In this document: positions 620 through 44,679 of the stretch, piece after piece
Layout of the letters: each line of letters opens with the position of its first letter
Numbering within the stretch: position 1 is the stretch's first letter
DNA from: Candidatus Omnitrophota bacterium
Lineage (GTDB): Bacteria; Omnitrophota; Gorgyraeia; Gygaellales; Profunditerraquicolaceae
Reading direction: 5' to 3'
Assembly (NCBI GenBank): GCA_023227985.1
Contig: JALOCB010000007.1
Location: 399-64,398 of the forward strand
Length of the DNA: 64,000 bases
Program-made: the position numbers and the translations under genes
The notes under the pieces: generated by a model
Seen by the model: the letters and a program-made list of their open reading frames with translations, nothing else
What the model was told of the DNA's origin: nothing
Databases searched by the model: none

Positions 620-687
620 ACCGGGTACTGAACTGTGATGCCAACCAAGACCGGGAATGCCGGTTTTCAGGATGAGTTAAAAAAATC

Positions 688-716
688 TTGACAACGAATG
701 TGGTTATGTTAAACTA
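688..716 (+). promoter_or_regulatory. Candidate sigma70-like promoter for the pilin gene
   Basis: TTGACA at 688-693 with a ~17-nt spacer to TAAACT. An RBS GGAGGTG lies at 727-733, ahead of the ATG at 738. Confidence 0.35.
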
Positions 717-737: not shown

Positions 738-1136
738 ATGAGGAGAAATAAGGGCTTTACTCTTATTGAGTTGGTGTTGGTAATTGTCATCATTGGTATA
801 TTGGCGGCGGTGGCTATTCCCCGGTTCGTTGATCTTCGGACTGAAGCTGTCAGGGCGCGTTGCCAGTCGGATGTAGGTGCGATCAGGTCTGGGGTATCGT
901 CGTGGTATGCTAAATATCACGCAAGCAATGCTTGCCCTACCGGCGGCACATGTTCTGCGACAGGTTTTCCGGCAGTGGCGGAATTGGGCAATGTCACTTC
1001 GACTTTCGCAGTTTTGACTTTTGCGAATGGGACCTTGCCTGACACCGCAAATATCGTGGGTGCTACCAAGGACTGGTCAAATTATTATAACGAAACAACC
1101 GGCGTAATGGATATAGTAAGCTGTTGCGGAAGCTGA
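738..1136 (+). CDS. Type IV pilin/pseudopilin with an N-terminal prepilin cleavage/methylation motif
   Basis: The N-terminus MRRNKGFTLIELVLVIVIIGILAAVAIP is a canonical class III signal (G|FTLIE). The C-terminal region is Cys-rich and variable. Confidence 0.75.
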   Translation: MRRNKGFTLIELVLVIVIIGILAAVAIPRFVDLRTEAVRARCQSDVGAIRSGVSSWYAKYHASNACPTGGTCSATGFPAVAELGNVTSTFAVLTFANGTLPDTANIVGATKDWSNYYNETTGVMDIVSCCGS

Positions 1137-1161: not shown

Positions 1162-1203
1162 AAGGCCTTCTGGGTTACAATGCTCAGAAGGCCTTTTTAT
1201 TTA
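1162..1203 (+). terminator. Rho-independent terminator after the pilin gene
   Basis: AAGGCCTTCTG (1162-1172) pairs with CAGAAGGCCTT (1185-1195) and is followed by TTTTTATTT. Confidence 0.7.
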
Positions 1204-1267: not shown

Positions 1268-1295
1268 TTGACATAATATTGTGAGGATTTATAAT
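1268..1295 (+). promoter_or_regulatory. Candidate sigma70-like promoter of the chemotaxis operon
   Basis: TTGACA (1268-1273), a 16-nt spacer, then TATAAT (1290-1295). A ~110-nt leader with CCGGTAT direct repeats follows before cheC at 1406. Confidence 0.5.
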
Positions 1296-1405
1296 TTTTA
1301 AGAGAGATACTGCGTGTTGACCGCGGCGCCGGTATACTGGTATGTCCGGTATCGTGCCGGCAGGTTTTATTGATAGAGGCGTTAAATAATATCATAAAAT
1401 AAATT

Positions 1406-2014
1406 ATGGCCGATATGAATTTCACCGATATCCAGAAAGACGCATTGCAGGAGATCGGAAATATCTGCGCCGGCAACGCAGCTACCGCCCTGTCGCAGTT
1501 ATTGGATAGGCCTATAAATATAGTTGTTCCCCGTATCCTTTTCCTGCCTATAGAAGATGTCCCCAAGGCGGTCGGCGGAAGCGAGAAGCTTGTCGTTGGG
1601 CTTATGCTGCGGGTTTTCGGCGACTTGCCCAGCAATATAGTCTTCATATTCTCTCAAAGGGACGCGATGATCCTGGCGTCTCTTGTTACCGGAAAACCTG
1701 TATCTGAATCAACCGTTATATCCGAGATGGAGCGCTCGGCCCTGAAAGAGATCGGGGTTATCCTGGCTAACGCTTATTTAGGGGCCCTGGGGAGCTTTGT
1801 CGGCCTCGGCCTTGTGCCTACCGTTCCGGAGTTGATAATGGATATGGCCGGGGCTATCCTGGATTACCTGCTGATTGAATTAAGCTGTAAGTCGGAATTC
1901 GCTTTATTGGTGGAATCCGAACTGCATGAACCCGTAGCCTCGGTGACCGGGCATTTTTTCCTTATTCCCGATCCGGCGGGCATGGAGCTTATTACCAGGG
2001 CCATAGGCAAATAG
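1406..2014 (+). CDS. cheC: CheC-family chemotaxis phosphatase (paralog 1)
   Basis: DALQEIGNICAGNAATALSQLL matches the CheC signature (E-IGN-x-G-x-AATAL). It is 202 aa with a second repeat in the C-terminal half. Confidence 0.75.
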   Translation: MADMNFTDIQKDALQEIGNICAGNAATALSQLLDRPINIVVPRILFLPIEDVPKAVGGSEKLVVGLMLRVFGDLPSNIVFIFSQRDAMILASLVTGKPVSESTVISEMERSALKEIGVILANAYLGALGSFVGLGLVPTVPELIMDMAGAILDYLLIELSCKSEFALLVESELHEPVASVTGHFFLIPDPAGMELITRAIGK

Positions 2015-2064
2015 CCGCGTTTATTTTATAAAACAAGCAATATTAAACAAGAAAGATCCAACTT

Positions 2065-4056
2065 ATGCAAGATAGTTACCGGGAACTATTCCTTTCCGAA
2101 TCGCAGGAGTACTTGAGTAATATCAGCAGTTGCCTGGTGAAGCTTGAAGAAAAACCTTCTGATCCGTCTTCGATAAACGAGATCTTCCGCTGCGTGCATA
2201 CCCTTAAAGGAATGTCCGCCACCATGGGCTATGAAAAACTGACCACATTGTCCCATGAGATGGAAGACCTTCTTGACGAGCTGCGCAATAAGAAACAGGA
2301 GCTTAGTCCCGAGATTATGGACACATTATTTGCGGCGGTGGACATTCTGGAACAATTATTCACAGAGATAAAGGGAAAGAAGGAATCGGTCCTGGATATA
2401 TCCGAGATCGGCAATACCTTGAAAAGCTTTCTTGCGGAGAATCAGCGAAATAAACCCAGAGGAAAAGGAAAGGGCGCGGTAGTTGCCCCTGTCAAGGATT
2501 TTACCGAATTCGAGCTTAAAAAGCTCAAAGACTCGAAATCAAAGAAATTAAACGTGTTTAATGTGCGGATAAACCTGAGCAAGGATTGCGCGCTGAAGGA
2601 AGCCCGGGCATTCCTGGTGATCACTAACCTGAAGCGGTTCGGGGAGATAATTTCGACCCAGCCTTCGATAGAAGACCTTAAGGCGGGTAATTTCGAGTAT
2701 TCGTTTACGGCAATGTTTTCCAGCAAAGAAGATTCCGGGATAGTGCGCCAGGAATTGATGAATATATCGGAAGTAGACGAGGTGAGTATCTCCTCCCAGG
2801 ACCTCTCCGGAACTGGTCCTTCCGATGGTAAACAGGGGCAGCCGTCAGCGGCAAATCATCCGGCTAACGCCCCGGCGGCCGGGCCTGTTTATGTAAAGAA
2901 GATACAGAGCATGCGCATTCCGGTGGAACGGTTGGATAAGATCATGAACCTGATGGGTGAGCTGTCGATCGCCAAAATCCGGCTGGTGCAAATAGTCCAG
3001 ACATATAAGCTGGAGCCTCTTGAAGAAGTCGGTTTTTCCCTTGACCGCCTGATCTCCGCCTTGCAGGATGAAGTCATGCAGACCAGGCTTTTGCCTGTAG
3101 CGTATATACTTGACGCTTTCCCGCGGGTAGTCAGGGATGTGGCAAAGAAGCAAGGCAAGGATGTGGAACTGGAGATATTGGGCGGCGAGATAGAGCTGGA
3201 TCGTATGGTCCTGGATGAGATGAGCGATCCCCTTTTGCACTTGGTAAGAAATGCCGTGGACCATGGGCTGGAGACATCGGAAGAGAGAAAGAAGAATAAC
3301 AAAGACCCCCGCGGTAAGCTTACTATACAGGTGAGCCGCCAAAGGGGACAGATCTATATAGAAGTTATTGATGACGGTCAAGGGATTGATTTTGAGGCTG
3401 TCTGCAAAATCGCTATAAGTAAAGGTTTGGTCACCCCGGAAGAAACAGCGGAAATGGATGAAAAAAAGGTCCTGGACCTGATAACCATGCCGGGATTTTC
3501 CACCGCCAAGGCCATAACCGATATCTCCGGCCGCGGGGTAGGGTTGGATGTGGTAAAATCCAAGATTGAAGCTTTAGGCGGCAGGGTGGATTTTGAGACG
3601 AAAAAAGGCGAAGGCAGCCGGTTTATCCTGACATTACCTCTGACATTGGCTATCATCAAAGCGATGTTAGTCAAGGTGGAAGAAGAAATATTCGCCATCC
3701 CCCTGATGAATATCCGGGAAACTATAAAGATAAGGACTGACGAGCTTAGATATCTGCAGAACTTTGAAGTGGTCAAGGTAAGGGAAGAGGTTATCCCGGT
3801 GATCAGGCTGAATAAAGAACTGGGAATAAGCAGCGCGAAGGTCGCAAGTGAAGAATCCGACGACCGGGTATCCCTGGTTATCGTGGAATATGGAAAGAAG
3901 GCTTTGGGTTTGGTGGTTTCGCAGGTTTTGGGAGAGCAGGATATAGCTGTTAAACCGCTTGGCTCTTTAGTCAAGCGCACCAAAGGTATTGCCGGCGCGA
4001 CTATACTGGGCGACGGGAGGGTGGCTTTGATCCTGGATATAATGAGCCTGCGTTAA
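2065..4056 (+). CDS. cheA: Chemotaxis histidine kinase CheA
   Basis: An Hpt domain (FRCVHTLKGMSATMGY), dimerization and HATPase domains (DDGQGID, GRGVGLDVVK), and a C-terminal CheW-like domain. 663 aa. Confidence 0.9.
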   Translation: MQDSYRELFLSESQEYLSNISSCLVKLEEKPSDPSSINEIFRCVHTLKGMSATMGYEKLTTLSHEMEDLLDELRNKKQELSPEIMDTLFAAVDILEQLFTEIKGKKESVLDISEIGNTLKSFLAENQRNKPRGKGKGAVVAPVKDFTEFELKKLKDSKSKKLNVFNVRINLSKDCALKEARAFLVITNLKRFGEIISTQPSIEDLKAGNFEYSFTAMFSSKEDSGIVRQELMNISEVDEVSISSQDLSGTGPSDGKQGQPSAANHPANAPAAGPVYVKKIQSMRIPVERLDKIMNLMGELSIAKIRLVQIVQTYKLEPLEEVGFSLDRLISALQDEVMQTRLLPVAYILDAFPRVVRDVAKKQGKDVELEILGGEIELDRMVLDEMSDPLLHLVRNAVDHGLETSEERKKNNKDPRGKLTIQVSRQRGQIYIEVIDDGQGIDFEAVCKIAISKGLVTPEETAEMDEKKVLDLITMPGFSTAKAITDISGRGVGLDVVKSKIEALGGRVDFETKKGEGSRFILTLPLTLAIIKAMLVKVEEEIFAIPLMNIRETIKIRTDELRYLQNFEVVKVREEVIPVIRLNKELGISSAKVASEESDDRVSLVIVEYGKKALGLVVSQVLGEQDIAVKPLGSLVKRTKGIAGATILGDGRVALILDIMSLR

Positions 4057-4102
4057 ACGCGCTAAGCCAGCGCATCCCGGCCTGATCCTGGAGGATATCA
4101 TT

Positions 4103-4723
4103 ATGGAAAAGCTCAATTTAGGCAACGAACAGTTGGATCTTTTTAAAGAAATAGGGTCGATCGGCGGAGGCAACGCCGCTACCGCCCTAAGCCAGATATT
4201 GGCAAGCAAGGTCACCATATCCGTTCCCCAGGTTAAACTCGTCAGCTCCGAAGCGGTGACTAATTCTGAGTTTCAGATCGAGCCTGAAGAGGTCGGCCTG
4301 GCTATTGATTTTAAGATCCTGGGCGCCCTGCAGGGAGGGATGGTCATATTGTTCTCCCAGAAGAGCGCTCTTTTAATGATCGATATCTTGTTGAAGAAAA
4401 AGATAGGCTCGACCCAATTGATAAACCTGATGGAGGCGTCGGCGCTGTCCGAGGTATCGCACATAATCTCGGGAAGTTATATAAACGCGGTGGGGGAATT
4501 ACTGGAACTGCATCAATTGATACCATCCATCCCCCGGACGATAGTCGACCGTATGGACCGGTTGAACAAGCTGTTGATCAGAAGGTTATCCGATGACAGC
4601 TCAGGTTATCTTCTTCCAATAGAGAATAATCTCGTCATAGAGGATATTAAGGTCGATCTGTTCGTAATATTCCTCCTGGAACAGGAAAGCATAAGGAAGG
4701 TGCTTAAATTAAGCGGTTTATGA
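4103..4723 (+). CDS. cheC: CheC-family phosphatase (paralog 2)
   Basis: LDLFKEIGSIGGGNAATALSQIL. 206 aa. Its stop overlaps the next ATG (ATGA). Confidence 0.7.
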   Translation: MEKLNLGNEQLDLFKEIGSIGGGNAATALSQILASKVTISVPQVKLVSSEAVTNSEFQIEPEEVGLAIDFKILGALQGGMVILFSQKSALLMIDILLKKKIGSTQLINLMEASALSEVSHIISGSYINAVGELLELHQLIPSIPRTIVDRMDRLNKLLIRRLSDDSSGYLLPIENNLVIEDIKVDLFVIFLLEQESIRKVLKLSGL

Positions 4724-6861
4724 AAGAACAAATATTCGCTTTAGATATCGGCACGCGAAAGGTCATGGGAATTGTCGCTCAGAGATGCGAGGATTCTCTG
4801 GAGATAATCGACGCCGAGGTTATCGAACATGTTGCCCGGCCTATGCTGGACGGCCAGATCCACAGCATTGAAGAAGTGGCCAGGACAGTAAAAAAGATCA
4901 AGGAACGGCTGGAATCCCGGTTGAGCAAAAAACTTGATAAGGTCGGTGTCGCCGTCGCCGGCAGGAACCTGTTGACTTATAAAAGCAGGGTAAAACGCGA
5001 TTTCCCGGCCCATGAGGAGATAACCCCGGATATTATCCGCGACCTGGAGCTGGAAGCGATAGACAAGATAAATACTGATTCGGGTAAGGACCTTTCAGAA
5101 TTCTATTGTGTGGGTTACAGCCCGGTTTATCATGAGCTCGACGGAAACAGGATAAATAACCCTGTCGGCCACAGAGCCCGTTCGATAGCTGCCGAGGTGA
5201 TCGTAACGTTTCTTCCCCGGCTGGTGCTGGACAGTATATTTGCGGTCTTGAAGAAAGCCAATCTTGAAGGGACTAATATAACCCTTGAGCCTATTTCCGC
5301 TATTAACGCGATAATTCCCGCGGAGATGCGCAATTTGAATATAATCCTGGTGGATATCGGAGCCGGGACCTCGGATATGGCCCTGGCTAAGGATGGGATG
5401 GTTTTTGCTTTCGGTATGGTCCCTGAGGCCGGTGATGAAATAACCGAATTCATATCGGAAAATCTGCTTGCGGATTTTTCGACTGCCGAGCGGATCAAAA
5501 GGTCTATTCAATCCGACGGCGCCATCGAATATCAGGATATCTGGAACCGGCCCAGGTGCATAGATTCCGCCACGTTCAGAGAAACAATTGTCCCGGCAGT
5601 AAAAAAACTTGCCGGCTCTGTATCCAGCGCGTGCCTTGATCTCAACGCCGGACTGCCGCAGGCGATAGTCCTGGTCGGCGGAGGCAGCATGACTTGCGGT
5701 TTGATCGAAGAGCTGGCTTTAAGCATTGGGCTGCCGCCTTACAAGATAGGAATACGCCTGCCTGAACTGATAAAAGGCGTTAAGGATAAAACCGGAAAAT
5801 TGAGCGGCCCGGAGGCGGTAACCCCTATCGGTATCGCCCTGATGACCGATAGATCCCAGGGATTGAGGTTCATCCACGCCGAGGTTAATCATAAGAAAAT
5901 AATTATGCTGGATTTTCAGCAGAAAAAAGATATAATGGGAGCACTTACTTTGTCCGGGGTGGTGAACGAAAAAAGGCTCTATCCTCATCCGGGGCTGGCC
6001 CTTACAGCTAAAGTAAACGGCCAATTAAAGGTTATAAAGGGGACGATGGGATGCCCCGCCAAGATATTGCTTAACGGCAAACCGATAAATTCGCTGGCGG
6101 ACAAGATCGAGGACGGGGACAAAATAACTTTTGAAGAGGCGCTTAACGGCACGGATGCCTCGGCAATTGTTTCGGATGTAGCGGATATCAACAAGGTCCG
6201 CTGTATTTTCAACAACGAGATAATCGAAGTGGCGCCGAGTGTTTTTGTCGAAGGCGAGGCCGCGGCCCTGGACGCGCCGGTTGCTGACCGGGCCAGTATA
6301 ACTGTTTCCGCGGTTACCGCCAGAGAGGTGTTGAGGTCCAGGGGGGTTAGCCTTGAGTCTTTGAGCGAGAGGCAGATATTGATAAACCTTAACAGTTCTC
6401 CGAAGATATTGACACAGCGTAATTTTTCCCTTAGCCTTAATAAAGAGGCTTGCGGCGTGGATACGCTGGTAAAGCCGAATGATATAGTCGAATTTTCCTC
6501 CCACACCCCGACCGCTTACCGGATAAAGGATGTGGTGGAATTCCCGAAAGACTTTGAAAGGATACGCATAAAGGTCGATGACAGGGATATCGAGGTTATC
6601 CTGGATACTATCCAGGTTTTTATGAACGGCCGCCAGGTGCAGCCGGAAGAGTTCCTGATCGACGGGGCGGATATCCAGGTGTACCAGACCAAGGAGCGCA
6701 AGGTCCTGCTTTCCGAGATTTTTCGGTATATAGATGTCCAGCCGCAAAAAGTTTACGGCAAAAGGATCAAGCTGTTCGTCGATGACATTCCGGCAGGGTT
6801 TACCACGCCTTTGACCGACGGTTCGAGGGTCAGGATACTTTTTGAAGACAGGGACGGATAA
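4720..6861 (+). CDS. FtsA/actin-fold ATPase-like protein (N-terminal ~380 aa) fused to a ~330-aa C-terminal region of tandem beta-grasp-like repeats. Its function is unknown and it is embedded in the che operon.
   Basis: Phosphate-1 motif ALDIGTRKVMGIV. Phosphate-2 motif LVDIGAGTSDMALA (compare FtsA VVDIGGGTMDIAV). Adenosine motif AIVLVGGGSMTCGL. C-terminal repeats carry NG+x...L.DGDxI signatures. It is translationally coupled to cheC. Confidence 0.55.
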   Translation: MKEQIFALDIGTRKVMGIVAQRCEDSLEIIDAEVIEHVARPMLDGQIHSIEEVARTVKKIKERLESRLSKKLDKVGVAVAGRNLLTYKSRVKRDFPAHEEITPDIIRDLELEAIDKINTDSGKDLSEFYCVGYSPVYHELDGNRINNPVGHRARSIAAEVIVTFLPRLVLDSIFAVLKKANLEGTNITLEPISAINAIIPAEMRNLNIILVDIGAGTSDMALAKDGMVFAFGMVPEAGDEITEFISENLLADFSTAERIKRSIQSDGAIEYQDIWNRPRCIDSATFRETIVPAVKKLAGSVSSACLDLNAGLPQAIVLVGGGSMTCGLIEELALSIGLPPYKIGIRLPELIKGVKDKTGKLSGPEAVTPIGIALMTDRSQGLRFIHAEVNHKKIIMLDFQQKKDIMGALTLSGVVNEKRLYPHPGLALTAKVNGQLKVIKGTMGCPAKILLNGKPINSLADKIEDGDKITFEEALNGTDASAIVSDVADINKVRCIFNNEIIEVAPSVFVEGEAAALDAPVADRASITVSAVTAREVLRSRGVSLESLSERQILINLNSSPKILTQRNFSLSLNKEACGVDTLVKPNDIVEFSSHTPTAYRIKDVVEFPKDFERIRIKVDDRDIEVILDTIQVFMNGRQVQPEEFLIDGADIQVYQTKERKVLLSEIFRYIDVQPQKVYGKRIKLFVDDIPAGFTTPLTDGSRVRILFEDRDG

Positions 6862-7090
6862 TTTACACCCGGCACAATCGGAATACGTGCCGGTGTTGCG
6901 TTTCTAGTATTTACACCCGGCACAATGGCATCCGACTTTAGTGCACCTGACTTTATCGGAAAAGTCAGTGTGTGTTTGTACACAAGAATAAGTCGGTATC
7001 CGCCTCGGGGCGGAGAATATGCACCGGTGTCGCGTTTTTAGTATTTACACCCGGTGCAATCGGAATATGCACCGGTGTCGCATACGTATG
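6862..7090. repeat. Cluster of ~34-bp palindromic hairpin repeats (REP-like): copies at 6865-6898 and 7047-7080, plus a third copy split into halves at 6913-6926 and 7015-7032 by an 88-bp hairpin-rich insert
   Basis: ACACCCGG-YRC-AATCGGAATAY-GYR-CCGGTGTYG with the flank TTT...CGTTTYTAGTA. Stem bases covary (CAC/GTG versus TGC/GCA). Confidence 0.6.
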
Positions 7091-7105
7091 CGAGGAGGGA
7101 TAACG

Positions 7106-7369
7106 ATGAAGATCCAGAATTATATGGAAGATGTGGTTCAGGAAGAACTGGAATTGCTTCTTGCCGAGAGGGATGATATCTGTAAATGCCAGAAATGCAA
7201 GTTCGATATGATGGTTTGGACCCTGAACAGGCTGCCTCCGAAATACGTTATCACTAATAGGGGCCGGTTATATACAAAGCTCAAGGAACAGGAGATACAA
7301 TTCAAGGCGGACGTGGTCAAGGAACTCACTAAAGCAATCGAATATATCGGGAAAAACCCGCAGCATTGA
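7106..7369 (+). CDS. comFB: ComFB-family (late competence ComFB / CdgR-like) small protein
   Basis: 87 aa starting at MKIQNYMED after the RBS GAGGAGG. The conserved Cys cluster is DICKCQKCKFDMMVWTLNRLPPKYV. The ORF track's upstream extension lies inside the repeat region. Confidence 0.55.
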   Translation: MKIQNYMEDVVQEELELLLAERDDICKCQKCKFDMMVWTLNRLPPKYVITNRGRLYTKLKEQEIQFKADVVKELTKAIEYIGKNPQH

Positions 7370-7377
7370 GCACCAGT

Positions 7378-8205
7378 ATGGCAGATATTACGGATAAGGG
7401 GAAATATACCGAAGAAGATCTGAAGAAAGCGCTTAAATTTATAAGCGAGCGCCGGGGCATCGACTTGTGTTCTTACCGGCAGAACTTTGTTTTTCGCCAT
7501 CTGCGTTCCCGGCTGCAGGATGTCAATGTAGCCAGCGGGGCTGAATATGTGGAGTACATCAAGGCGAATCCGGATGAAATAGATGTTTTTATGGATGCCT
7601 TGTCCATAAGCGTTACGCATTTCTTCCGGGATTCCGATGTTTTTGAATCATTCCGGAAAAACGTCATTCCCGCTGTAATGAAACGCAAGGAGGGCGCGGA
7701 ACAAAAGATGATCCGGATGTGGTCGGCGGGCTGCGCCACCGGACAGGAGGCTTATTCCATAGCCATATTGATGCAGGAAGCCCTGGCCGGAAGAAACGAT
7801 TATCTGGTTAAGATCTGGGCCACTGACATAGATATGGACGCGATCGAAAAGGCGAAAAAAGGAGAGTACGAACTGCGCGATTTCCGGGAGATGGAAAGAA
7901 AATACCGGGATAAATATTTCGAGCAAAAAGGGGACAAGCTCTTTCTGAAAGACGAGATTAAGCGTATGGTCAGGTTCGAACGGGTAAACCTGATCACCGA
8001 CCCGGGGCTTAAATTCATGGATGTGATCTTCTGCCGCAACGTGATGATCTATTTTAACCGTCAGCAGCAGGAGGAGCTTTTTAAGAAGTTCCATCAGGCC
8101 CTTAATATTAAAGGGTATCTGGTAGTGGCAAAGGTGGAGACGATATGGGACAAGGATCAATTCGTCCCTATAGACCCACCGCAGAAGATATACCAGAAGA
8201 TTTAA
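7378..8205 (+). CDS. cheR: Chemotaxis protein methyltransferase CheR
   Basis: An N-terminal CheR all-alpha domain and a SAM-methyltransferase fold (WSAGCATGQEAYSIAILM). The alternative TTG start at 7366 overlaps the comFB stop. Confidence 0.85.
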   Translation: MADITDKGKYTEEDLKKALKFISERRGIDLCSYRQNFVFRHLRSRLQDVNVASGAEYVEYIKANPDEIDVFMDALSISVTHFFRDSDVFESFRKNVIPAVMKRKEGAEQKMIRMWSAGCATGQEAYSIAILMQEALAGRNDYLVKIWATDIDMDAIEKAKKGEYELRDFREMERKYRDKYFEQKGDKLFLKDEIKRMVRFERVNLITDPGLKFMDVIFCRNVMIYFNRQQQEELFKKFHQALNIKGYLVVAKVETIWDKDQFVPIDPPQKIYQKI

Positions 8206-8269
8206 CCGGTATAAGCCCGGCCGGGTTTGTCAAGCGCTATCGTTTATAAAAATGAAAAGGGAGGTAGAA

Positions 8270-8641
8270 ATGGCAAGAGTTTTAGTTGTTGACGACGCGT
8301 TGTTCATGCGCAGGATGCTTTCCGATATCCTCAAAAAAGAGGGGATCGAGATATGCGGGGAAGCCGAGAATGGCAAGGATGCCATATCCAAATACCAGGA
8401 ATTCAAGCCCGACCTGGTTACTATGGATATCGTTATGCCCAGGATCGAAGAGATCGACGGTATAGGCGCGGTCAAAGAGATCATCAAGGCTGACCCTCAG
8501 GCCAAGATCATTATGGTCTCGGCCATGGGCCAGCATTCGCTGGTAGTGGAGGCCATTCAGGCAGGTGCAAAGGACTTTGTTACCAAACCGTTTCAGCCTT
8601 CCAGGGTAATCGAAGCTGTAAAGAGGGCCTTAGGCGGTTGA
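8270..8641 (+). CDS. cheY: Chemotaxis response regulator CheY
   Basis: A single-domain receiver (VLVVDDALFMRRML...DLVTMDIVMP...K near the C-terminus). An RBS GGGAGG precedes the ATG at 8270. Confidence 0.85.
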   Translation: MARVLVVDDALFMRRMLSDILKKEGIEICGEAENGKDAISKYQEFKPDLVTMDIVMPRIEEIDGIGAVKEIIKADPQAKIIMVSAMGQHSLVVEAIQAGAKDFVTKPFQPSRVIEAVKRALGG

Positions 8642-9141
8642 TGGAAAAGATTATGGAAGAAAATATCATCGAAGTACAAATGGCCGATATGCAGTTTGGC
8701 CAGGCGCCTGCTATATTGATCACCCGGGGGCTTGGTTCGTGCCTGGGCATCACTTTTTACGACCCTGCCAAAAAAATCGGGGCTATGGCCCACGCTATGC
8801 TCCCCGATATTAACATCGCGAAGATAAAGAGCAATCTTAACCGTTTTGTGAATTCCGCAATAGCCGCGATGCTGGCTGAGTTTGAAAAAAGAGGCTGTCC
8901 CAAGGGCCGCATTGTCGCCAAATTGTTCGGCGGCGCGCATATGTTCAGTTTTATAAGCAGCGACAGCGTGCTTAACGTCGGTCAGAAAAACATCGATACC
9001 GCCCTGGTCGTCCTGAAAGAGCATAATATCAAGATAGTCGGACAGGAAGTGGGCGGAACCTTTGGTAGGACTATCGAGTTGAATCTGGAGACAGGCGTAG
9101 TCCTGGTAAAGACCGTTTCCTGGGGAGAGAAGGAAGTGTAA
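8641..9141 (+). CDS. cheD: Chemoreceptor glutamine deamidase CheD
   Basis: GLGSCLGITFYDP contains the catalytic Cys motif. It overlaps the cheY stop. Confidence 0.85.
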   Translation: MEKIMEENIIEVQMADMQFGQAPAILITRGLGSCLGITFYDPAKKIGAMAHAMLPDINIAKIKSNLNRFVNSAIAAMLAEFEKRGCPKGRIVAKLFGGAHMFSFISSDSVLNVGQKNIDTALVVLKEHNIKIVGQEVGGTFGRTIELNLETGVVLVKTVSWGEKEV

Positions 9142-10187
9142 TGGAAACAGAAAAAATAAAGGTCATAGTTGTTGACGACTCGTTTTTGATGCGCAGGATT
9201 ATTTCCGATATCATAAACAGCGACGGATCTTTGGAGGTTGTCGCCCGGGCAAAAGACGGCAGGGATGCCTTGGAAAAGGTTCTCAGCCTGTCCCCCGACG
9301 TGGTGACCCTGGATATAAATCTTCCGGATATCAACGGCATAGACGTGCTTCAGGAGATAATGAAGAAGAGGCCCACCAGGGTGATCATGCTCTCCGCGTA
9401 TACCCGGTCGGGGGCGTCGGCCACAATGCGGGCATTGGAATTGGGCGCGGTTGATTTTATCGCCAAGCCTGCGGGGGAGATTTCTTTGGGGCTGGATAAA
9501 TTAAAGTCCGAGATAATCGCCAAGATAAAGACCGCGGCCAAGATCAATTTGGATAAATATCTGGACGGGTTCCGGGCGAAAGCGGATATTGCCGAAGACA
9601 AAAAGAAAGTATCAGATACCAAGAAATTAGTGGTTATCGGCGCTTCTACCGGCGGCCCCAAGGCGGTATTGGATATAATGCGTGATATCCCCGTTGATAT
9701 ACAGGCTTCATTTTTGATAGTGCAGCATATGCCAAAGGGCTTCACCCAGACTTTTGCCGAGAGGATAGGTTGGCAGTCGGGGATACGGGCAAAGGAGGCC
9801 GAAGAATCGGATAGTCTAGCTCCGGGCAGGGTTTTTGTCGCGCCGGCGGGATTCCATCTGGTGCTGGAAGAGTATAAGGATGAAGTGAAGATAAAGTTGA
9901 ATCAGGATCCTCCGGTGAATTTCGTCCGGCCTTCTATAGATGTTACGATGTTATCGACGGCCCGGATTTTCGGCAACAATGTGATCGGGGTGATACTTAC
10001 GGGGATGGGTAAAGACGGCTTTGAAGGCGTGAAAAAGATAAAGGAATGCGGCGGTAAGGTTATTGTTCAGGATGAGGCGACCTCGGTCGTCTGGGGTATG
10101 CCTGGCTCGGTGGCCCGGGCAGGTTTGGCGGATTCGATTTTGCCACTCTCGAATATCGCCCAGGAATTGCTGAAGTATATAAGATAG
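9141..10187 (+). CDS. cheB: Protein-glutamate methylesterase CheB (receiver plus methylesterase)
   Basis: An N-terminal receiver (KVIVVDDSFLMRR) and a C-terminal CheB domain (VVIGASTGGPKAV, IVQHMPKGFT). Confidence 0.9.
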   Translation: METEKIKVIVVDDSFLMRRIISDIINSDGSLEVVARAKDGRDALEKVLSLSPDVVTLDINLPDINGIDVLQEIMKKRPTRVIMLSAYTRSGASATMRALELGAVDFIAKPAGEISLGLDKLKSEIIAKIKTAAKINLDKYLDGFRAKADIAEDKKKVSDTKKLVVIGASTGGPKAVLDIMRDIPVDIQASFLIVQHMPKGFTQTFAERIGWQSGIRAKEAEESDSLAPGRVFVAPAGFHLVLEEYKDEVKIKLNQDPPVNFVRPSIDVTMLSTARIFGNNVIGVILTGMGKDGFEGVKKIKECGGKVIVQDEATSVVWGMPGSVARAGLADSILPLSNIAQELLKYIR

Positions 10188-10215
10188 AACATAAAAGCGG
10201 AGTCAATACTTATCG

Positions 10216-10821
10216 ATGGACGAAAAATTATCTCTTAACCAGGTGGACGTATTGAAAGAGATAGGCTCTATTGGTTCGGCGACTGCAGCCACCGCCCTGG
10301 CGGATATGATAGCTGAAAAGGTCGAGATCAATGTGCCTGAGGTCAGCATTGTTCCCCTGGAGAAGATATCTACTCTTTTTAACGGCGCGGAAAGACTGTT
10401 TTTTGTCCTGGATATGGAGATAAAAGGCGATATAGGCGGCAGGATATTCCTTATGCTTCCGCCCGAGGACGCCAAGTTCCTTTCCGGCGCTTTGCTGGGC
10501 AAGCCCAAAGAGGACATAGACATCAATGACGATATGTTCAAATCTTCTTTGCGGGAGGTTTGTAATATTCTTGGCGGGGCGTACGTTTCGGCATTGGCGG
10601 ATATGACCGGCCTGATGATACTCACCTCCATCCCTTCAATGGCTATGGATATGGTGGGCGCCATACTGGATTTTATATTCATCCAGATCGCCCAGGAATC
10701 AGAGGAGGCTATGTTCATCAAGACCGATCTTATTGTGAAAGGGCTGAAGCTCGAGGGTTTGTTCCTGTTGTTCCCGGATAATGAATCGTTAAAGAAGATA
10801 TTCGAGATATTGAAAGTTTAA
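10216..10821 (+). CDS. cheC: CheC-family phosphatase (paralog 3)
   Basis: VDVLKEIGSIGSATAATALADMI. 201 aa. Confidence 0.7.
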   Translation: MDEKLSLNQVDVLKEIGSIGSATAATALADMIAEKVEINVPEVSIVPLEKISTLFNGAERLFFVLDMEIKGDIGGRIFLMLPPEDAKFLSGALLGKPKEDIDINDDMFKSSLREVCNILGGAYVSALADMTGLMILTSIPSMAMDMVGAILDFIFIQIAQESEEAMFIKTDLIVKGLKLEGLFLLFPDNESLKKIFEILKV

Positions 10822-10837
10822 ACCAGGAGGAAGCGCT

Positions 10838-11338
10838 ATGGCTGAGCAGAAACCAAAAGAATACCAGTTGGTTGTTTTTACGATCGGGGAGGAAGAATTC
10901 GGCGTTGACATAAGCCAGGTGCGTGAGATCGTCCGGCTGGTCCAGATCACATATCTGCCCAAGGCCCCGGTATTTATTGAAGGCGTGGTTAATCTGCGCG
11001 GCCAGGTATTGGCGGTCATTGATCTTTCCAAACGGATCGGCGTGTCATCCAAGGAACGGGGCGAGAATACCCGGATCATCGTGGTCGAAGTGGGCGAGAA
11101 TACGGTTGGGATGATCGTGGATTCTGTTTCCGAGGTTTTAAGGCTTACATCCGATGCGGTTGAGGAAGTCCCCAGTCTGGTTGATACCGAGGTCCCGGAG
11201 CATTATATCCGGGGCGTGGGTAAACTTAAAGACAGGCTGTTGGTGCTTCTGGACCTGAATAAGATCCTGACCCCGGAGGAATTCCAGCATATGGAACGGC
11301 ATGTGAAGTCAGTGTCGGAAAAAGAAGGAAAGGCATAG
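10838..11338 (+). CDS. cheW: Chemotaxis coupling protein CheW
   Basis: A single CheW domain (YQLVVFTIGEEEFGVDISQVREIV). 166 aa. Confidence 0.9.
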   Translation: MAEQKPKEYQLVVFTIGEEEFGVDISQVREIVRLVQITYLPKAPVFIEGVVNLRGQVLAVIDLSKRIGVSSKERGENTRIIVVEVGENTVGMIVDSVSEVLRLTSDAVEEVPSLVDTEVPEHYIRGVGKLKDRLLVLLDLNKILTPEEFQHMERHVKSVSEKEGKA

Positions 11339-11400
11339 TAAACAATACGTTAGGTTTAACGTTTCGTTTAACGCTCAAGCCTTTTTAGCTTTTTCGCCAT

Positions 11401-11431
11401 CCGCCAGCCTCTCTGGCGGTTTATGGTTTTT
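11401..11431 (+). terminator. Probable intrinsic terminator at the end of the che operon
   Basis: CCGCCAG-cctct-CTGGCGG followed by TTTATGGTTTTT. Confidence 0.45.
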
Positions 11432-11439
11432 AGACAACC

Positions 11440-12084
11440 TTGAAAAAAATGAAATATTATCCGGTATTATTAGACCTAACAGGCAGGAAATGCTGCGTGG
11501 TCGGGGCGGGCTCTGTGGCTGAACGCAAAGCCAGGTCGCTTATCGATGCGCAAGCTGCGGTTGAGGTGATCAGCCCTGTGCTTTCTTGCGGATTGAAAGT
11601 TCTTTTGCGCAAAGGCAAGATCCGTCATATTGCCTCTGATTACCGCCCAGCCTTGATCAAAGGCGCGTTTTTAGTCATTGCCGCCACCGATCATAATAGA
11701 GTGAACCTGGCAATATCGCGTGACGCCCAAAAACACGGGATCCTTACCAATATCGTGGATGTCCCCGATATAAGCAACTTTATTGTCCCCTCGGTGATCC
11801 ATAAACACGGTTTGATCATAGCTATTTCCACCAGCGGCATGGCGCCCTGCCTTTCCAAGAAGATAAGGATTGAGCTTACAAAGGATTTCCTGCCGCGTTA
11901 CCTGAAACTTTTGAAGATAGTTGATGCGGCAAGAAAAGAGCTTAAGTCTTCCTGTCTAAAAGGGACAGTCAGGAAAGAACTGTTGACCCGGCTGGTTAAT
12001 TCGCCTAAGGCCTGCGGTTACAGTAAATGTTTTTCTAAAAAAGTACCCGGTAAGATCATCCGGGAAATTCTGTCTGAATTATAA
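11440..12084 (+). CDS. Precorrin-2 dehydrogenase / sirohydrochlorin ferrochelatase (siroheme synthase N-terminal domain; SirC/Met8-like)
   Basis: A Rossmann motif (CCVVGAGSVAERKARSL). 214 aa. It sits at the head of the heme operon. Confidence 0.7.
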   Translation: MKKMKYYPVLLDLTGRKCCVVGAGSVAERKARSLIDAQAAVEVISPVLSCGLKVLLRKGKIRHIASDYRPALIKGAFLVIAATDHNRVNLAISRDAQKHGILTNIVDVPDISNFIVPSVIHKHGLIIAISTSGMAPCLSKKIRIELTKDFLPRYLKLLKIVDAARKELKSSCLKGTVRKELLTRLVNSPKACGYSKCFSKKVPGKIIREILSEL

Positions 12085-12908
12085 TGCCTTTATACGAGAT
12101 TATTTTTAAATCCACATTCGGTTTATACCTGCTGGCCAGCGCGGGATTTTTTCTTTTTTTTATTACCCAGAATCATCGGATAGGATCAACGGCCGCCATA
12201 GCCGGTTTTTGCGGGTTTCTGTTGCATACGTCCATTCTTGTTTACCGCAGCCTTGCTCTCGGGTATCTGGCGGTCTCCAATCTTCACGAGTCTCTTTCAT
12301 TCTTTGTTTGGTTGGTCATGCTGGTTTATTTTATCGTAGAATCACGGCGCAGATTATGGGCCCACGCCGCGTTTATTATGCCTCTTGTGGTCTTAATGAT
12401 GGGATACGCCCTGGTCTTGGATAATCAGTCCAGTCCTTTGCCCGTCGCCCTTAAGAGCCCGTGGCTGGCGATACACGCTACTTTGTGTTTTTTGAGCTAT
12501 GCCTGTTTCCTTATGGCTTTTTGCCTTGGGATAATGTATCTTTGGCAGGAGCGTGAGCTTAAATCCCGGAAACCGGATATGTTCTTTTTTCGCCTGCCTT
12601 CATTAGGGTTGATGGACCGGCTGGGTTTCCGCGCTGTGAGTTTCGGGTTCGTTTGTTTGAGCCTGGGGATCATCAGCGGATCGGTCTGGGCCCAGCAGGC
12701 CTGGGGATCGTTCTGGAGTTGGGATCCCAAAGAAACCTGGTCGTTGGTCACATGGTTTATTTATTTGGTATATCTGCACGGCCGGTTTATATCCGGCTGG
12801 CAGGGCAGGAAAAGCGCTTATGTGGCTATCCTGGGTTTTTTGACCGTGCTTTTTACTTATTTCGGGGTCAGCCTGTTGTTTTCCGGGTTGCATTCTTATT
12901 TCAAGTAA
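12084..12908 (+). CDS. hemX: HemX / CcsA-family membrane protein (cytochrome c assembly-like), found in the hemAXCDBL-type context
   Basis: Polytopic, with a Trp-rich WGSFWSWDPKETWSLVTWFIYLVYLHGR (WWD-like) motif. It lies immediately upstream of hemA. Confidence 0.6.
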   Translation: MPLYEIIFKSTFGLYLLASAGFFLFFITQNHRIGSTAAIAGFCGFLLHTSILVYRSLALGYLAVSNLHESLSFFVWLVMLVYFIVESRRRLWAHAAFIMPLVVLMMGYALVLDNQSSPLPVALKSPWLAIHATLCFLSYACFLMAFCLGIMYLWQERELKSRKPDMFFFRLPSLGLMDRLGFRAVSFGFVCLSLGIISGSVWAQQAWGSFWSWDPKETWSLVTWFIYLVYLHGRFISGWQGRKSAYVAILGFLTVLFTYFGVSLLFSGLHSYFK

Positions 12909-12909
12909 T

Positions 12910-13956
12910 ATGAACATACAAATAATCGGCCTTAACCATAAAACCGCTCCCATAGAGGTGCGCGAGCGGATATCTATACGCCCGGAAACCATTCCCGGCG
13001 CTTTAAGCGCGTTGAAGAGCTGCGGCTGTATACAGGAAGCGTTGATCCTGTCCACTTGCAACCGTACCGAGATATACGCTGTAGCTGAGAATAACCCTCA
13101 GGGGCTGATCTCGATAAGAAGTTTTATCAGCGACTTCCATAAAATAGCCTTAAATGCCTTTGAAGGCCATCTGTACAGTTTTAGCGGCAAAGACGCGGTA
13201 AGGCATTTGTTCAGGGTGGCCTCTTCCCTTGATTCGATGATCGTGGGTGAAACGCAGATCTTCGGCCAGGTAAAAGACGCTTATTTCGCGGCCAGGCAGT
13301 ATAACGCCGCGGGCCGGTGTTTATCCTGCCTGTTTGAAGAGGCGATCAGGGTCGGTAAAAAGGTGCGCACTGATACGCAGATCGGCAAAGGAGCGGTATC
13401 CACCACTACCGCGGCCATAGAATTGTCGCGCAAGATATTCGAGACCCTGGAAAATAAAAAGGTTTTGATAATCGGCGCGGGAAAGATCGGCGAGCTTACG
13501 GTGAAAAATCTTAATTCGCGCGGGGTAAGGACGGTAATGGTGGCTAACCGCACTTTCGCCAGGGCGGAGGAACTGGCCCGGATATTCTGCGGCGAGGCGA
13601 TCAAGTTTGAAGGGATATCCGCAGCGCTAAAAAACACTGATATCGTGATCAGCTCTACCAGCGCCCCGCATTTTGTCCTGAATAAGGAGGATATCATTGC
13701 GGTCATGCGTTCCAGGAAGAGCGGGCCTTTATTCATGATCGACCTGGGGCTCCCCCGCAATATCGATCCGCAGGTAAACGGGATCGATAATGTTTATCTT
13801 TATAACATCGATGACCTGGCCCAGGTGGCCGACGCTAATATAAAAGACCGCCGCAAGGAGGCAGCCAAGGCCGAGGCGATAATCGATCTCTGCGTGGAAT
13901 CTGCGGTAAAAAGGTTGAATGAGATAAAAGAGCAGAAGGAATCTATCTTAAAGTGA
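12910..13956 (+). CDS. hemA: Glutamyl-tRNA reductase
   Basis: IIGLNHKTAPIEVRE, the active-site motif LSTCNRTEIY, and an NADP-binding GAGKIGE. Confidence 0.9.
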   Translation: MNIQIIGLNHKTAPIEVRERISIRPETIPGALSALKSCGCIQEALILSTCNRTEIYAVAENNPQGLISIRSFISDFHKIALNAFEGHLYSFSGKDAVRHLFRVASSLDSMIVGETQIFGQVKDAYFAARQYNAAGRCLSCLFEEAIRVGKKVRTDTQIGKGAVSTTTAAIELSRKIFETLENKKVLIIGAGKIGELTVKNLNSRGVRTVMVANRTFARAEELARIFCGEAIKFEGISAALKNTDIVISSTSAPHFVLNKEDIIAVMRSRKSGPLFMIDLGLPRNIDPQVNGIDNVYLYNIDDLAQVADANIKDRRKEAAKAEAIIDLCVESAVKRLNEIKEQKESILK

Positions 13957-14873
13957 ATAAAAGAATGATAACCGTCGGAGCCAGGGGAAGCCTTTTGTCC
14001 GTGGCTCAGACTGAAGGCGTGATCAGGTCGTTAAAACGCAGATTTCCCCGATACGTTTTTACTTTAAAGCGGATAACCACTTTGGGCGATACGAGCAAGA
14101 CCTGGAGCCGTCAGGATCAGGGGATATTCGTAAAAGAGATAGAAGAGCAGCTTTTAAACGGGCAGATCGATCTGGCTGTTCACAGCGTCAAGGACCTGCC
14201 TTCGCAAATACCCCCGGGTCTTAATCTCGCCGGTATTACCAAAAGGGTTGATCCCCGCGATCTTCTGGTCAGCCGGGATGGAGCGGCTCTGGGCGATCTG
14301 AAACCGGGAGCGCTGGTGGGGACCAGTAGCCTGCGCCGCAAAGCATTCCTGATGATCCACAGGCCGGATCTGCGGGTCAGCGATCTGAGGGGCAATCTCG
14401 ACACCCGGCTGCGCAAGCTCAATGAAGGCCAATATGACGCGATCATAGTGGCGGCAGCGGGAATTAAAAGGCTGGGGATCAAGGGGTTCAAAGGGAAAAA
14501 GATCTCCGCGGATATTATGCTTCCTGCCTGCGGCCAGGGCGCGTTGGGGATCGAAGTAAGATCAACAGACCGGCAAATGGTCAGGCTTGCCCGCGCGATA
14601 AATTGTCCCCGGACATATGCCTGCGTTTGCTGCGAACGGGAATTCTTGCGCCGGGTCGGCGGAGGGTGCCGTTTACCCATAGCGTCATTTGCCAGGATGA
14701 TCAAAGGCAATATTTGCCTGAGCGTGTTGATCGCCAGTTTAGACGGTAAAATATCAGTCAGCTTGAAAAAAACTGTTCCGGTAAAAAAATATCTTGTTCT
14801 GGCCAGGGAGCTGGCTGAACAGGCTTTGGATAAAGGCGCAAGGCGGATACTAGAGGATATAAATAATGGGTAA
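13953..14873 (+). CDS. hemC: Porphobilinogen deaminase (hydroxymethylbilane synthase)
   Basis: ITVGARGSLLSVAQTE. 306 aa. Overlaps hemA. Confidence 0.9.
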   Translation: MNKRMITVGARGSLLSVAQTEGVIRSLKRRFPRYVFTLKRITTLGDTSKTWSRQDQGIFVKEIEEQLLNGQIDLAVHSVKDLPSQIPPGLNLAGITKRVDPRDLLVSRDGAALGDLKPGALVGTSSLRRKAFLMIHRPDLRVSDLRGNLDTRLRKLNEGQYDAIIVAAAGIKRLGIKGFKGKKISADIMLPACGQGALGIEVRSTDRQMVRLARAINCPRTYACVCCEREFLRRVGGGCRLPIASFARMIKGNICLSVLIASLDGKISVSLKKTVPVKKYLVLARELAEQALDKGARRILEDINNG

Positions 14874-18532: not shown

Positions 18533-19044
18533 AACTTTCGTATTGCTCTTTATAAATTTTAACGGGTCCTGTTTTTAGCTTTGTGGCTTTGCTTCGCGCA
18601 CGGAGTATTTTTGCCGTACGCTACGGTTTACGCCTCATTCCCGTAGCGGCTTTCGCCAGGCGTTTCGATACTCCCATTCGGCGTAATCCCTTGCGTACAT
18701 CTGCCGGAAATCTCCTGATTGTGCGCTCCAGCAAACCCACAAAAGTATAATCTAATTCGTTAAAACGAGAATTGTTCAAGAACAGTTTAATTGAATAAAT
18801 GAATCTGGCGGTTTGCGAGCGAATGGAGGTTTTAGCCAAAGCAGCTTGAGCTGGCGAGGGCATCCAAACGCGTAAACATTTGGACGACGAGCATGTTCGA
18901 GACCGTCTTGGGCGGTAAGCCCGACGGGCGAGTTGCGCAGGAGCCGAGAAAGCGAAAGACCTTTGGCGGCCTGATAGGGTAAAACCGACTTTGAGCGAGG
19001 AACCCGGCAGATTCATTAATCAGAATATTATTTTTAAGAAAACT

Positions 19045-44645: not shown

Positions 44646-44679
44646 ACACCCGGCGCAATCGGAATATGCGCCGGTGTTG
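44646..44679. repeat. Copy of the covarying hairpin repeat, sitting between the hydrogenase small and large subunit genes
   Basis: ACACCCGGCGCAATCGGAATATGCGCCGGTGTTG. The stem variant CGC/GCG is compensatory relative to the copies at 6865 and 7047. A partial copy is at 44611-44625. Confidence 0.6.

Follow-up and report, generated by a model that had tools for sequence, protein, structure and literature searches.

An FtsA/PilM-type protein with a predicted array of ubiquitin-like domains, encoded in a chemotaxis operon of an Omnitrophota bacterium

The window, a contig stretch of 64,000 nucleotides from a Candidatus Omnitrophota bacterium, contains an operon of 11 genes with the order cheC-cheA-cheC-X-comFB-cheR-cheY-cheD-cheB-cheC/cheX-cheW (Pfam), in which X denotes the gene that is the subject of this report (Table 1). 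An earlier note on the same DNA had placed cheA and cheC upstream of X, and comFB, cheR, cheY, cheD and cheB downstream, which the Pfam assignments bear out. No MCP gene was found among the Pfam-annotated neighbours in the operon. Based on consensus scans alone, the unit starts at a perfect sigma-70-like promoter (1268-1295) and ends at a terminator-like hairpin 3' of cheW (11401-11419). The pilin gene of the window forms a transcription unit of its own, closed by a terminator. The comFB reading frame as first listed (7019..7369) is over-extended. Since the true start is the ATG at 7107, a structured spacer of 245 nt directly follows X; no Rfam family was found for it. A receptor for c-di-NMP with links to pili and motility, ComFB is also known as a fusion with CheR in Omnitrophota (PMC12448109).

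Table 1. Coordinates of the che operon and of the parts of gene X and its product
Feature	Residues of X	Positions	Strand	Basis
che transcription unit with X		1268..11419	+	consensus scans only, no proof of function
CheC		1406..2014	+	Pfam
CheA		2065..4056	+	Pfam
CheC paralogue, translationally coupled to X		4103..4723	+	Pfam; ATGA overlap 4720-4723
Gene X, FtsA/PilM-like ATPase with five ubiquitin-like domains (predicted)	713 aa	4720..6861	+	full-length homologues
Actin/ASKHA fold, FtsA/PilM type	1-378	4720..5853	+	TIGR01174, Foldseek, PDB sequence search
Phosphate-1 motif LDIGTRKVM	8-16	4741..4767	+	G11, T12, R13 invariant (80 family members)
Inserted SHS2-type subdomain (FtsA 1C-like)	83-166	4966..5217	+	weak PF02491 match 83-162; AlphaFold secondary structure strand-helix-strands
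Phosphate-2 motif IILVDIGAGTSD (ILVDIGAGTSD)	208-219	5341..5376	+	D212, G214, A215, T217, D219 invariant (80 family members)
Adenosine motif IVLVGGGS	316-323	5665..5688	+	G320, G321 invariant (80 family members)
Ubiquitin-like domain 1 (predicted): hairpin, helix, extra hairpin, NG...GD strands	382-480	5863..6159	+	DSSP of models; coevolution
Ubiquitin-like domain 2 (predicted)	481-532	6160..6315	+	hhalign to domain 4; coevolution pair V487-V521
Ubiquitin-like domain 3 (predicted)	533-597	6316..6510	+	Pfam ThiS stretch 553-592; hhalign to domain 1 unit 94%; coevolution N574-D588
Ubiquitin-like domain 4 (predicted)	598-660	6511..6699	+	hhalign; coevolution K603-E643, N636-A650
Ubiquitin-like domain 5 (predicted)	661-713	6700..6858	+	coevolution L664/F668-L698, D688-S702
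comFB, 87 aa, corrected start, overlapping cheR start		7107..7369	+	ATG 7107 behind GAGGAGGG; orthologues 87 aa
CheR		7366..8205	+	Pfam
CheY		8252..8641	+	Pfam
CheD		8638..9141	+	Pfam
CheB		9141..10187	+	Pfam
CheC/CheX		10216..10821	+	Pfam
CheW		10838..11338	+	Pfam

The product of X has a mass of 78 kDa, a pI of 5.5 and no transmembrane segment. The gene had been described as a 713-codon frame overlapping the cheC stop, and its coordinates agree: as the cheC frame ends at 4723, both genes have the ATGA of the junction (...TTT ATG A...) in common. The identical junction occurs in loci L001, L003, L088, L005 and L012, and an overlap of 4 nt or a distance near zero is retained across several lineages. 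The CheC encoded just upstream of X carries substitutions at both catalytic Asn positions (EIGS, SEVSH). X itself has none of the named Che families (CheA/W/Y/B/R/C/D/X/V/Z) among its Pfam or NCBIfam hits, in line with the prior statement that no canonical Che component has this architecture.

The N-terminal half of X is an actin/ASKHA fold with the inserted SHS2 (1C) subdomain that is a feature of FtsA. The FtsA model TIGR01174 aligns residues 5-371 to its positions 2-367 of 371 (105.6 bits), and a PDB sequence search retrieves FtsA 7q6g at 2.5e-14. Foldseek ranks FtsA 7q6i first (E 1.2e-27, TM 0.71), followed by PilM 5eou (7e-20) and MreB/EutJ (1e-13). PF02491, which matches the inserted subdomain weakly, also hits the relative P0145. 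All three nucleotide-binding motifs reported in the earlier note for this fold are present, with core residues invariant across the 80 family members compared (30-66% identity).

The C-terminal repeats are real and above chance, as judged from hhalign and coevolution. Domain 2 aligns with domain 4 with a probability of 97.6 (E 3.9e-12), and other unit profiles align with each other at E 9e-8 and 3e-6. Coevolving pairs connect the strands within domain 1 (A408-I463, V414-N457, L397-F471, N452-D467), and unit by unit the position of the NG asparagine coevolves with that of the GD aspartate (N452-D467, N574-D588, N636-A650, D688-S702). A parse of the tail into six units was rejected, since coevolution joins the first hairpin-helix to the next strands and leaves five domains. 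Structure prediction and a fold search both support the reading of the repeats as beta-grasp domains. Thus, of the roughly four tandem beta-grasp-like units of 60-80 amino acids proposed initially, the repeats and the predicted beta-grasp fold stood up, while number and size had to be revised (five domains of 52-99 amino acids). Querying PDB sequences with the profile of the C-terminal part gave nothing meaningful, and only fold comparison yielded matches. The Pfam ThiS model (PF02597) scores 19.7 on X against a gathering cut-off of 22.5; it matches 11 of 11 homologues tested (best 8.4e-8) and exceeds the cut-off in the relatives P0237, P0145 and P0164 (38-50 bits). The tail shares with ThiS, MoaD and SAMP the predicted beta-grasp fold and the signature hxhNG...GDxIxh, which is found in every repeat. 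Unlike these proteins, X has five copies per chain, in most of which the helix lies before, not inside, the strand order. Weak coevolution was also seen between domains 1 and 5 (M406-V662, A408-I706), which may be an artefact of repeat alignment.

The architecture of X was found in 736 clusters at 50% identity, mostly of about 710 amino acids. Longer members (741-871 amino acids) contain no additional known domain, and so provide no Rosetta-stone fusion. Che-linked members form a single clade in a neighbour-joining tree, and in this clade cheA-(cheC)-X is always kept. It comprises Omnitrophota (L001-4, L007-9, L088), other bacteria (PVC MAG L011, Methylomirabilis L012, unclassified MAG L010, Elusimicrobia-labelled MAG L087) and the archaeon Methanolobus (L005, L013, L014). 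The comparison of neighbourhoods that had been suggested supports the che linkage for the closest relatives: che genes adjoin X in the window and in 14 related loci, and X takes the same position in Methanolobus and in five or more lineages of bacteria. Within its clade, X is best explained as a fixed accessory subunit of the CheA/CheW/CheY/CheB/CheR pathway with CheC and CheD, its binding partners being inferred.

In the bacterial members of the clade, type IV pilus genes often adjoin the cluster. The genes pilM/N-pilO-pilQ lie immediately upstream of it in L010 and L087, and in Omnitrophota the upstream genes include those for pilin and MshEN/PilZ. A pilus platform of the PilM/N type is absent from Methanolobus. 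The link between X and pili consists of adjacency only.

FtsA and PilM are known to assemble into polymers or rings, and each recognises an N-terminal peptide, from FtsN and PilN, respectively. We read X as a soluble, nucleotide-binding protein of FtsA/PilM type in which five ThiS/ubiquitin-like beta-grasp domains take the place of the FtsA membrane helix. The actin-like half would bind ATP (an inference) and would self-associate, clamp a short partner peptide, or both, as FtsA and PilM do, and the ubiquitin-like domains would serve as a multivalent docking arm. In this way X might hold Che proteins, above all the CheC encoded just upstream, at the receptor array or on the cytoplasmic side of a type-IV-filament machine, which would be the pilus in bacteria and the archaellum in Methanolobus. 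Our preferred reading, which we put forward tentatively and with somewhat less than even confidence, is thus that X is an ATP-dependent scaffold or adaptor through which proteins of Che signalling connect to a type-IV-filament motor or to the sensory array. The analysis establishes the fold, motifs and repeats, the size of the family, the conservation of the gene order cheA-(cheC)-X and the presence of pilus genes next to it; ATP use, self-assembly, partners and output are all inferred. So, too, is the role that the earlier note had suggested, that of a polymerising or scaffolding ATPase serving as an output or localisation module. A wider version is rather doubtful: X would then represent a new class of accessory protein in chemotaxis, in which an actin-like polymer or ring bears a poly-ubiquitin-like arm and physically couples CheA/CheC/CheD to type-IV-filament motors (pili in Omnitrophota, Elusimicrobia-like bacteria and PVC, the archaellum in Methanolobus), and the larger Firmicutes family would be an unrecognised bacterial cytoskeletal element.

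Chemotaxis is among the best-charted bacterial signalling systems, yet this 78-kDa protein keeps to a single position of the operon in different bacterial phyla and in an archaeal genus, and neither a name nor a family model nor a publication was found for it. Literature searches (FtsA-like, che operon, beta-grasp, archaea, FtsA paralogue) returned no description of the family, no curated family describes the architecture, and a survey of beta-grasp proteins (PMC1949818) mentions neither FtsA nor chemotaxis. Motility control may include X as a component not recognised so far. Should X prove to connect Che signalling with pili or archaella, this would bear on how little-known phyla direct type-IV-filament motility by chemosensory systems other than Pil-Chp. 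As the family combines an FtsA paralogue with ubiquitin-like domains in tandem, it would extend the bacterial actins by one member and give such domains a new use.

Another explanation is that X is a cytoskeletal ATPase by which the chemosensory array is positioned or segregated. ParC of Vibrio and PpfA of Rhodobacter, ParA-type ATPases from che operons that position chemoreceptor arrays, provide a precedent, and X lies inside the che operon beside cheA and cheC throughout the clade. Its fold is of the FtsA type, whose proteins are known to polymerise, and the lack of an MCP gene in the operon is compatible with arrays placed elsewhere. Nevertheless, the analogy to ParC/ParP and PpfA is one of context only (a cytoskeletal-type ATPase within a che operon): the actin-type ATPase of X is unrelated to the Walker-type fold of ParA/MinD, its function has not been shown, and a ParP-like adaptor is absent. 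As there is also no localisation evidence, and the recurrent adjacency to pilus genes would be left unexplained, we consider a positioning role unlikely.

We give about as little credit to a general cellular role of X outside the signal flow (in the envelope, in shape or in a cytoskeleton related to division, or else as an ATPase of chaperone-like kind), with the che-clade protein being a regulated target or merely co-inherited. Genome matches to the family come mostly from Firmicutes and Thermotogota, whose copies lack a che linkage (about 70 of the best 80 loci, without che genes nearby), which argues against an origin of the architecture as a Che component. All five domains and the ATPase half are kept together at 32-37% identity. 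In Bacilli the homologue lies between aroA and ytxH-ytxG-murC, in Syntrophomonas near mreB and mcsA-mcsB, and in some Clostridia near GGDEF and HD-GYP genes; in five Firmicutes loci CheR is encoded within 10 kb, amid unrelated genes. No coherent functional clue was found in the Firmicutes neighbourhoods, and such incoherent, mostly non-che contexts in Firmicutes and Thermotogota suggest that the ancestral function was not specific to chemotaxis. Hitch-hiking is nevertheless hard to credit for the che clade, as the exact cheA-(cheC)-X position and the translational coupling recur in different phyla and different domains of life. The parent family, with its hundreds of clusters, is genetically testable in cultivable genera that carry it, among them Brevibacillus, Lysinibacillus, Sporosarcina, Syntrophomonas, Heliobacterium and Pectinatus.

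It is very improbable that X is simply the FtsA (divisome anchor) or PilM (pilus platform) of the organism with a decorative tail. FtsA is the best match of X in sequence and structure, with the ASKHA fold, the inserted subdomain and all three motifs in common; PilM, which shares the FtsA-like subgroup of actin folds, comes second in the structural comparison, pilus genes adjoin X-bearing che clusters, and databases name family members FtsA, PilM or MreB. However, X stays below the curated cut-offs for FtsA (175.85 for TIGR01174; 53 versus 409 for NF007009) as well as for PilM (32.6 versus 133 for TIGR01175; 23.5 versus 27 for PF11104), and no characterised domain is assigned to its C-terminal part of about 330 additional residues. 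A profile assignment to either family, which the earlier note would have counted against its proposal, was thus not obtained, and the other two findings that it had named as refuting, repeats without support from structure prediction and orthologues without che linkage, do not apply to X and its closest relatives either. Also absent, according to the AlphaFold model, is the C-terminal amphipathic membrane-targeting helix of FtsA: the chain ends in a beta strand of a beta-grasp domain, and its tail is neither hydrophobic nor amphipathic. No ftsZ/dcw genes were found near X in the window or the 14 related loci, where the neighbours are che genes, and no pilNOPQ genes are encoded with X in the window. 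L010 and L087 contain separate, bona fide PilM-PilN genes beside the cluster, and X stays among the che genes there. X also occurs in the archaeon Methanolobus, and we know of no archaeal division that uses FtsA.

That the tail is a conjugation or sulfur-carrier substrate, or X part of a Bub/Bil-type anti-phage ubiquitin-like operon, is scarcely conceivable, as domain 5 ends in ...ILFEDRDG without the conserved Gly-Gly (also missing from the family consensus), no E1, E2 or JAB gene was found in any locus examined, and PADLOC returned only a partial match of 17.9 bits to the ATPase half of a protein surrounded by che genes. Bub-type multi-ubiquitin proteins (PDB 9cd2, 9d59, 9eav) are among the fold matches of X and likewise have tandem ubiquitin-like domains; unlike them, X has no deubiquitinase neighbour or defence signature, and its ubiquitin-like domains are fused to an actin-like ATPase.

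The gene for X, a 713-residue protein, lies within a chemotaxis operon (see the table of features). The earlier note had described this ORF as overlapping the stop of cheC and as flanked by che genes. Both points hold, as the ATG of X shares bases with the TGA of the preceding cheC in the window (junction ...TTTATGAAA...) and the neighbours were identified with Pfam. The promoter upstream of the first cheC and the terminator-like hairpin downstream of cheW, both from consensus scans, therefore place X mid-way in an 11-gene che unit. The comFB ORF as listed (116 aa) is over-long, since its orthologues have 87 aa; the likely start is ATG 7107, which is preceded by GAGGAGGG and gives 87 aa. ComFB is a c-di-NMP receptor linked to pili, competence and motility, and the overlap of its stop with the cheR start at 7366 fits the ComFB-CheR fusions reported in Omnitrophota (PMC12448109).

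Features of the che operon and of X (window positions; residues for domains)
Feature	Position	Strand	Basis
Pilin-like gene	738..1136		Pfam
Strong terminator-like hairpin 3' of pilin gene	1162-1195		consensus scan
Perfect sigma-70-like promoter, between post-pilin hairpin and cheC	1268-1295		consensus scan
CheC	1406..2014		Pfam
CheA (Hpt-P2-dimerisation-kinase-CheW domains)	2065..4056		Pfam
CheC adjoining X	4103..4723		Pfam
X	4720..6861	+	713-residue ORF
X tail domains 1-5	residues 382-480, 481-532, 533-597, 598-660, 661-713		coevolution
ComFB	7107..7369 after start correction (listed ORF 7019..7369)		Pfam
CheR	7366..8205		Pfam
CheY	8252..8641		Pfam
CheD	8638..9141		Pfam
CheB	9141..10187		Pfam
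CheC/CheX-like protein	10216..10821		Pfam
CheW	10838..11338		Pfam
Terminator-like hairpin 3' of cheW	11401-11419		consensus scan

X is a soluble protein that joins an FtsA/PilM-type nucleotide-binding fold to five ubiquitin-like domains, a structural description in which we have high confidence. Residues 5-371 align to a nearly complete NCBIfam FtsA model (105.6 bits versus a cut-off of 175.85), and the PilM, EutJ and MreB models score far below FtsA. With Pfam, FtsA reached 37.8 bits, and matches to PilM, MreB and SHS2 remained below threshold. The closest solved structures by sequence are FtsA proteins (2.5e-14). When an AlphaFold model of X (44 homologues as input, mean pLDDT 88) was submitted to Foldseek, FtsA ranked first (E 1e-27, TM 0.71), ahead of PilM (7e-20) and of MreB and EutJ (1e-13). 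No variation was seen in the phosphate-1, phosphate-2 and adenosine motifs among 80 family members with identity down to 30%, which makes it very probable, judging from sequence, that nucleotide binding has been retained. Neither a transmembrane segment nor a C-terminal amphipathic helix was found in X.

For the tail, the earlier note had proposed about four beta-grasp units; the fold is borne out by structural, profile and coevolution data, and the count has to be revised to five. Residues 376-713, modelled separately (pLDDT 87), matched linear tetra-ubiquitin best in a Foldseek search of the PDB (7yui, 1e-6); further matches were poly-ubiquitin chains and 9cd2, a multi-ubiquitin-domain protein of E. 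coli (2.9e-5). Without structural information, Pfam ThiS was matched by each of the 11 C-terminal homologues tested (best 8.4e-8), Ub-Mut7C by 7 and TGS by 4, and some relatives passed the ThiS cut-off. Tail units are mutually homologous in profile-profile comparison (E 3.9e-12, 9e-8 and 3e-6). In mean-field coevolution analysis of 366 sequences, the strongest couplings join the NG asparagine to the GD aspartate of the same unit, and each short helix packs against the strands that come after it; this pattern therefore delimits five domains. In domain 1 the order is the canonical hairpin-helix-strands, plus an additional hairpin; in domains 2-5 the helix comes first.

A word-indexed search returned more than 1000 relatives. 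The best 120 all come from metagenome bins of Candidatus Omnitrophota, with lengths of about 710 aa and identities of 54-94%, and this assigns the window to that phylum. A tail-only profile matched 736 clusters among 1.84 billion representatives at E<=1e-3 (471 of them at <=1e-10); most matches have the X architecture (700-730 aa, tail at about 380-715). When one genome per species was scanned, at least 559 loci were obtained, and the best 80 fall into three groups: a first group at 38-63% identity (Omnitrophota, a PVC bin, Methylomirabilis, an unclassified bin and Methanolobus), many Firmicutes at 32-37% across the full length, and Thermotogota in the same range. Firmicutes with X include Brevibacillus, Lysinibacillus, Sporosarcina, Oceanobacillus, Kurthia, Heliobacterium, Syntrophomonas, Desulfosporosinus, Dehalobacter, Pectinatus and Halanaerobiales. 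Archaeal X appears restricted to the genus Methanolobus; its next-best matches are bacterial (~40%), which suggests acquisition by transfer from bacteria. Database labels of the relatives are generic and contradictory (FtsA, PilM, MreB, "SHS2 domain-containing").

Throughout a clade that includes different phyla and both bacteria and archaea, X keeps a fixed position after cheA and cheC. When all X loci were screened with the window Che proteins, che genes were found beside X only in the first group, an Elusimicrobia-labelled bin (L087) included, and always in the order cheA-(cheC)-X. A neighbour-joining tree unites these X sequences in a single clade. Seven Omnitrophota loci have an 11-gene order identical to the window; cheA-(cheC)-X recurs in the unclassified bin (L010), the PVC bin (L011), Methylomirabilis (L012) and L087, and three Methanolobus genomes have cheY-cheB-cheA-cheC-X-cheR-cheC-cheC-cheD. 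In Omnitrophota, Methylomirabilis and Methanolobus, cheC and X either overlap by 4 nt or are separated by only a few bases. Type IV pilus genes repeatedly adjoin X-bearing clusters: the che cluster is directly 3' of pilM/N-pilO-pilQ in L010 and L087, and is preceded by pilin genes and a gene for an MshEN/PilZ protein in Omnitrophota.

No paper (open-access text), Pfam family or NCBIfam model was found for the architecture of X, and no homology to any named Che protein was detected with Pfam or NCBIfam; both halves are known folds. X is a conserved, unnamed che-operon component common to bacteria and an archaeon. Self-association is common to FtsA and PilM, each of which also clamps short peptides of its membrane partner (FtsN and PilN, respectively), and ubiquitin-like domains are typical protein-docking modules. 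On these analogies we favour, tentatively and at somewhat less than even confidence, an ATP-dependent scaffold or adaptor. X would hold Che proteins, and foremost the co-translated CheC, either at the receptor array or at the motor of a type IV filament (the pilus, or in Methanolobus the archaellum). That X instead positions the array, analogous to ParC/PpfA, seems unlikely, and we give equally little credence to a general cellular role with secondary che linkage.

The screen with the window Che proteins revealed no che linkage for Firmicutes X, and contexts vary by order: acuABC-ccpA-aroA-X-ytxH-ytxG-murC in Bacilli, mreB ... X ... mcsA-mcsB in Syntrophomonas, and GGDEF and HD-GYP genes in some Clostridia in which the tail is shorter or has diverged. 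The X family is a large group of FtsA paralogues, testable in cultivable Firmicutes. X lies between aroA and ytxH-ytxG-murC in Bacilli loci L020, L025, L026, L031, L047, L056, L057, L070, L080, L082 and others; Bacillus subtilis has this region and is not known to carry X in it. In a Clostridia/Bacillota-bin sub-group (L034, L036, L038, L046, L050, L067, L077), the alignment with window X stops at about residue 515-592; the L050 and L067 proteins are only ~597 aa long with fewer ubiquitin-like domains, and the others have a diverged tail. A GAF-GGDEF gene is directly downstream of X in 8 loci, and 10 loci have an HD-GYP gene nearby. The GGDEF/HD-GYP neighbours, with ComFB beside Omnitrophota X, provide a second hint at a cyclic-di-GMP connection.

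X is related to FtsA and PilM and would work like both, but it is very improbable that it is a true FtsA or PilM, because curated scores, membrane helix and gene context all place it outside these families, and a distinct PilM-PilN exists in L010 and L087. These PilM-PilN fusions (576-586 aa) head the pilO-pilQ clusters just upstream of the X-bearing che clusters (L010 358-2088, L087 1-1537). A ubiquitin-like modifier or a defence system can practically be dismissed: ThiS/MoaD/SAMP are the nearest beta-grasp relatives of the tail, but the defining marks of modifiers and sulfur carriers, the Gly-Gly and the E1 partner, are missing (no conserved terminal Gly-Gly at the X C-terminus; no E1, E2 or peptidase gene in the loci examined), bacterial multi-ubiquitin proteins share only the tandem arrangement, and no PADLOC defence model matches X.

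The che operon (1268-11419) encodes three CheC/CheX-like proteins and CheD, and no chemoreceptor (MCP) gene was found in it, unlike the che clusters of L010 and L012. In the X-coupled CheC of the window and of Omnitrophota locus L003 (7384-8004), Ser/Thr and His have replaced the catalytic Asn in the two E-x2-N phosphatase motifs (EIGS..., SEVSH...), and this CheC may serve as an adaptor without catalytic activity. At least one motif Asn is retained in each of the two remaining CheC-like genes of the operon, and an Asn is also kept in the CheC next to X in Methanolobus and Methylomirabilis.

The X-comFB spacer (6862-7106) measures 245 nt versus 17-30 nt in more distant orthologues, and contains repeated hairpins, ACACCCGG-NNN-AATCGGAATA(C/T)-NNN-CCGGT. 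A third copy (44646-44675) lies upstream of a NiFe hydrogenase large-subunit gene. The stem triplets vary yet remain complementary (CAC/GTG, TGC/GCA, CGC/GCG) with an invariant loop; Omnitrophota locus L088 (12139-12526) also has copies, with CGT/ACG. The spacer RNA fold has a z of -2.5, and Rfam gave no match for the spacer. Possible readings are a dispersed REP-like element and a motif for binding or regulation.

Directly 3' of the che operon lies a tetrapyrrole cluster (11440-21004) encoding a precorrin-2 dehydrogenase-like protein, a cytochrome c assembly protein, HemA, HemC, a CobA-HemD fusion, two radical-SAM proteins, HemB and a NirDL-like siroheme decarboxylase, a gene content that suggests a siroheme-dependent haem route. 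This che-haem neighbourhood is kept in other Omnitrophota.
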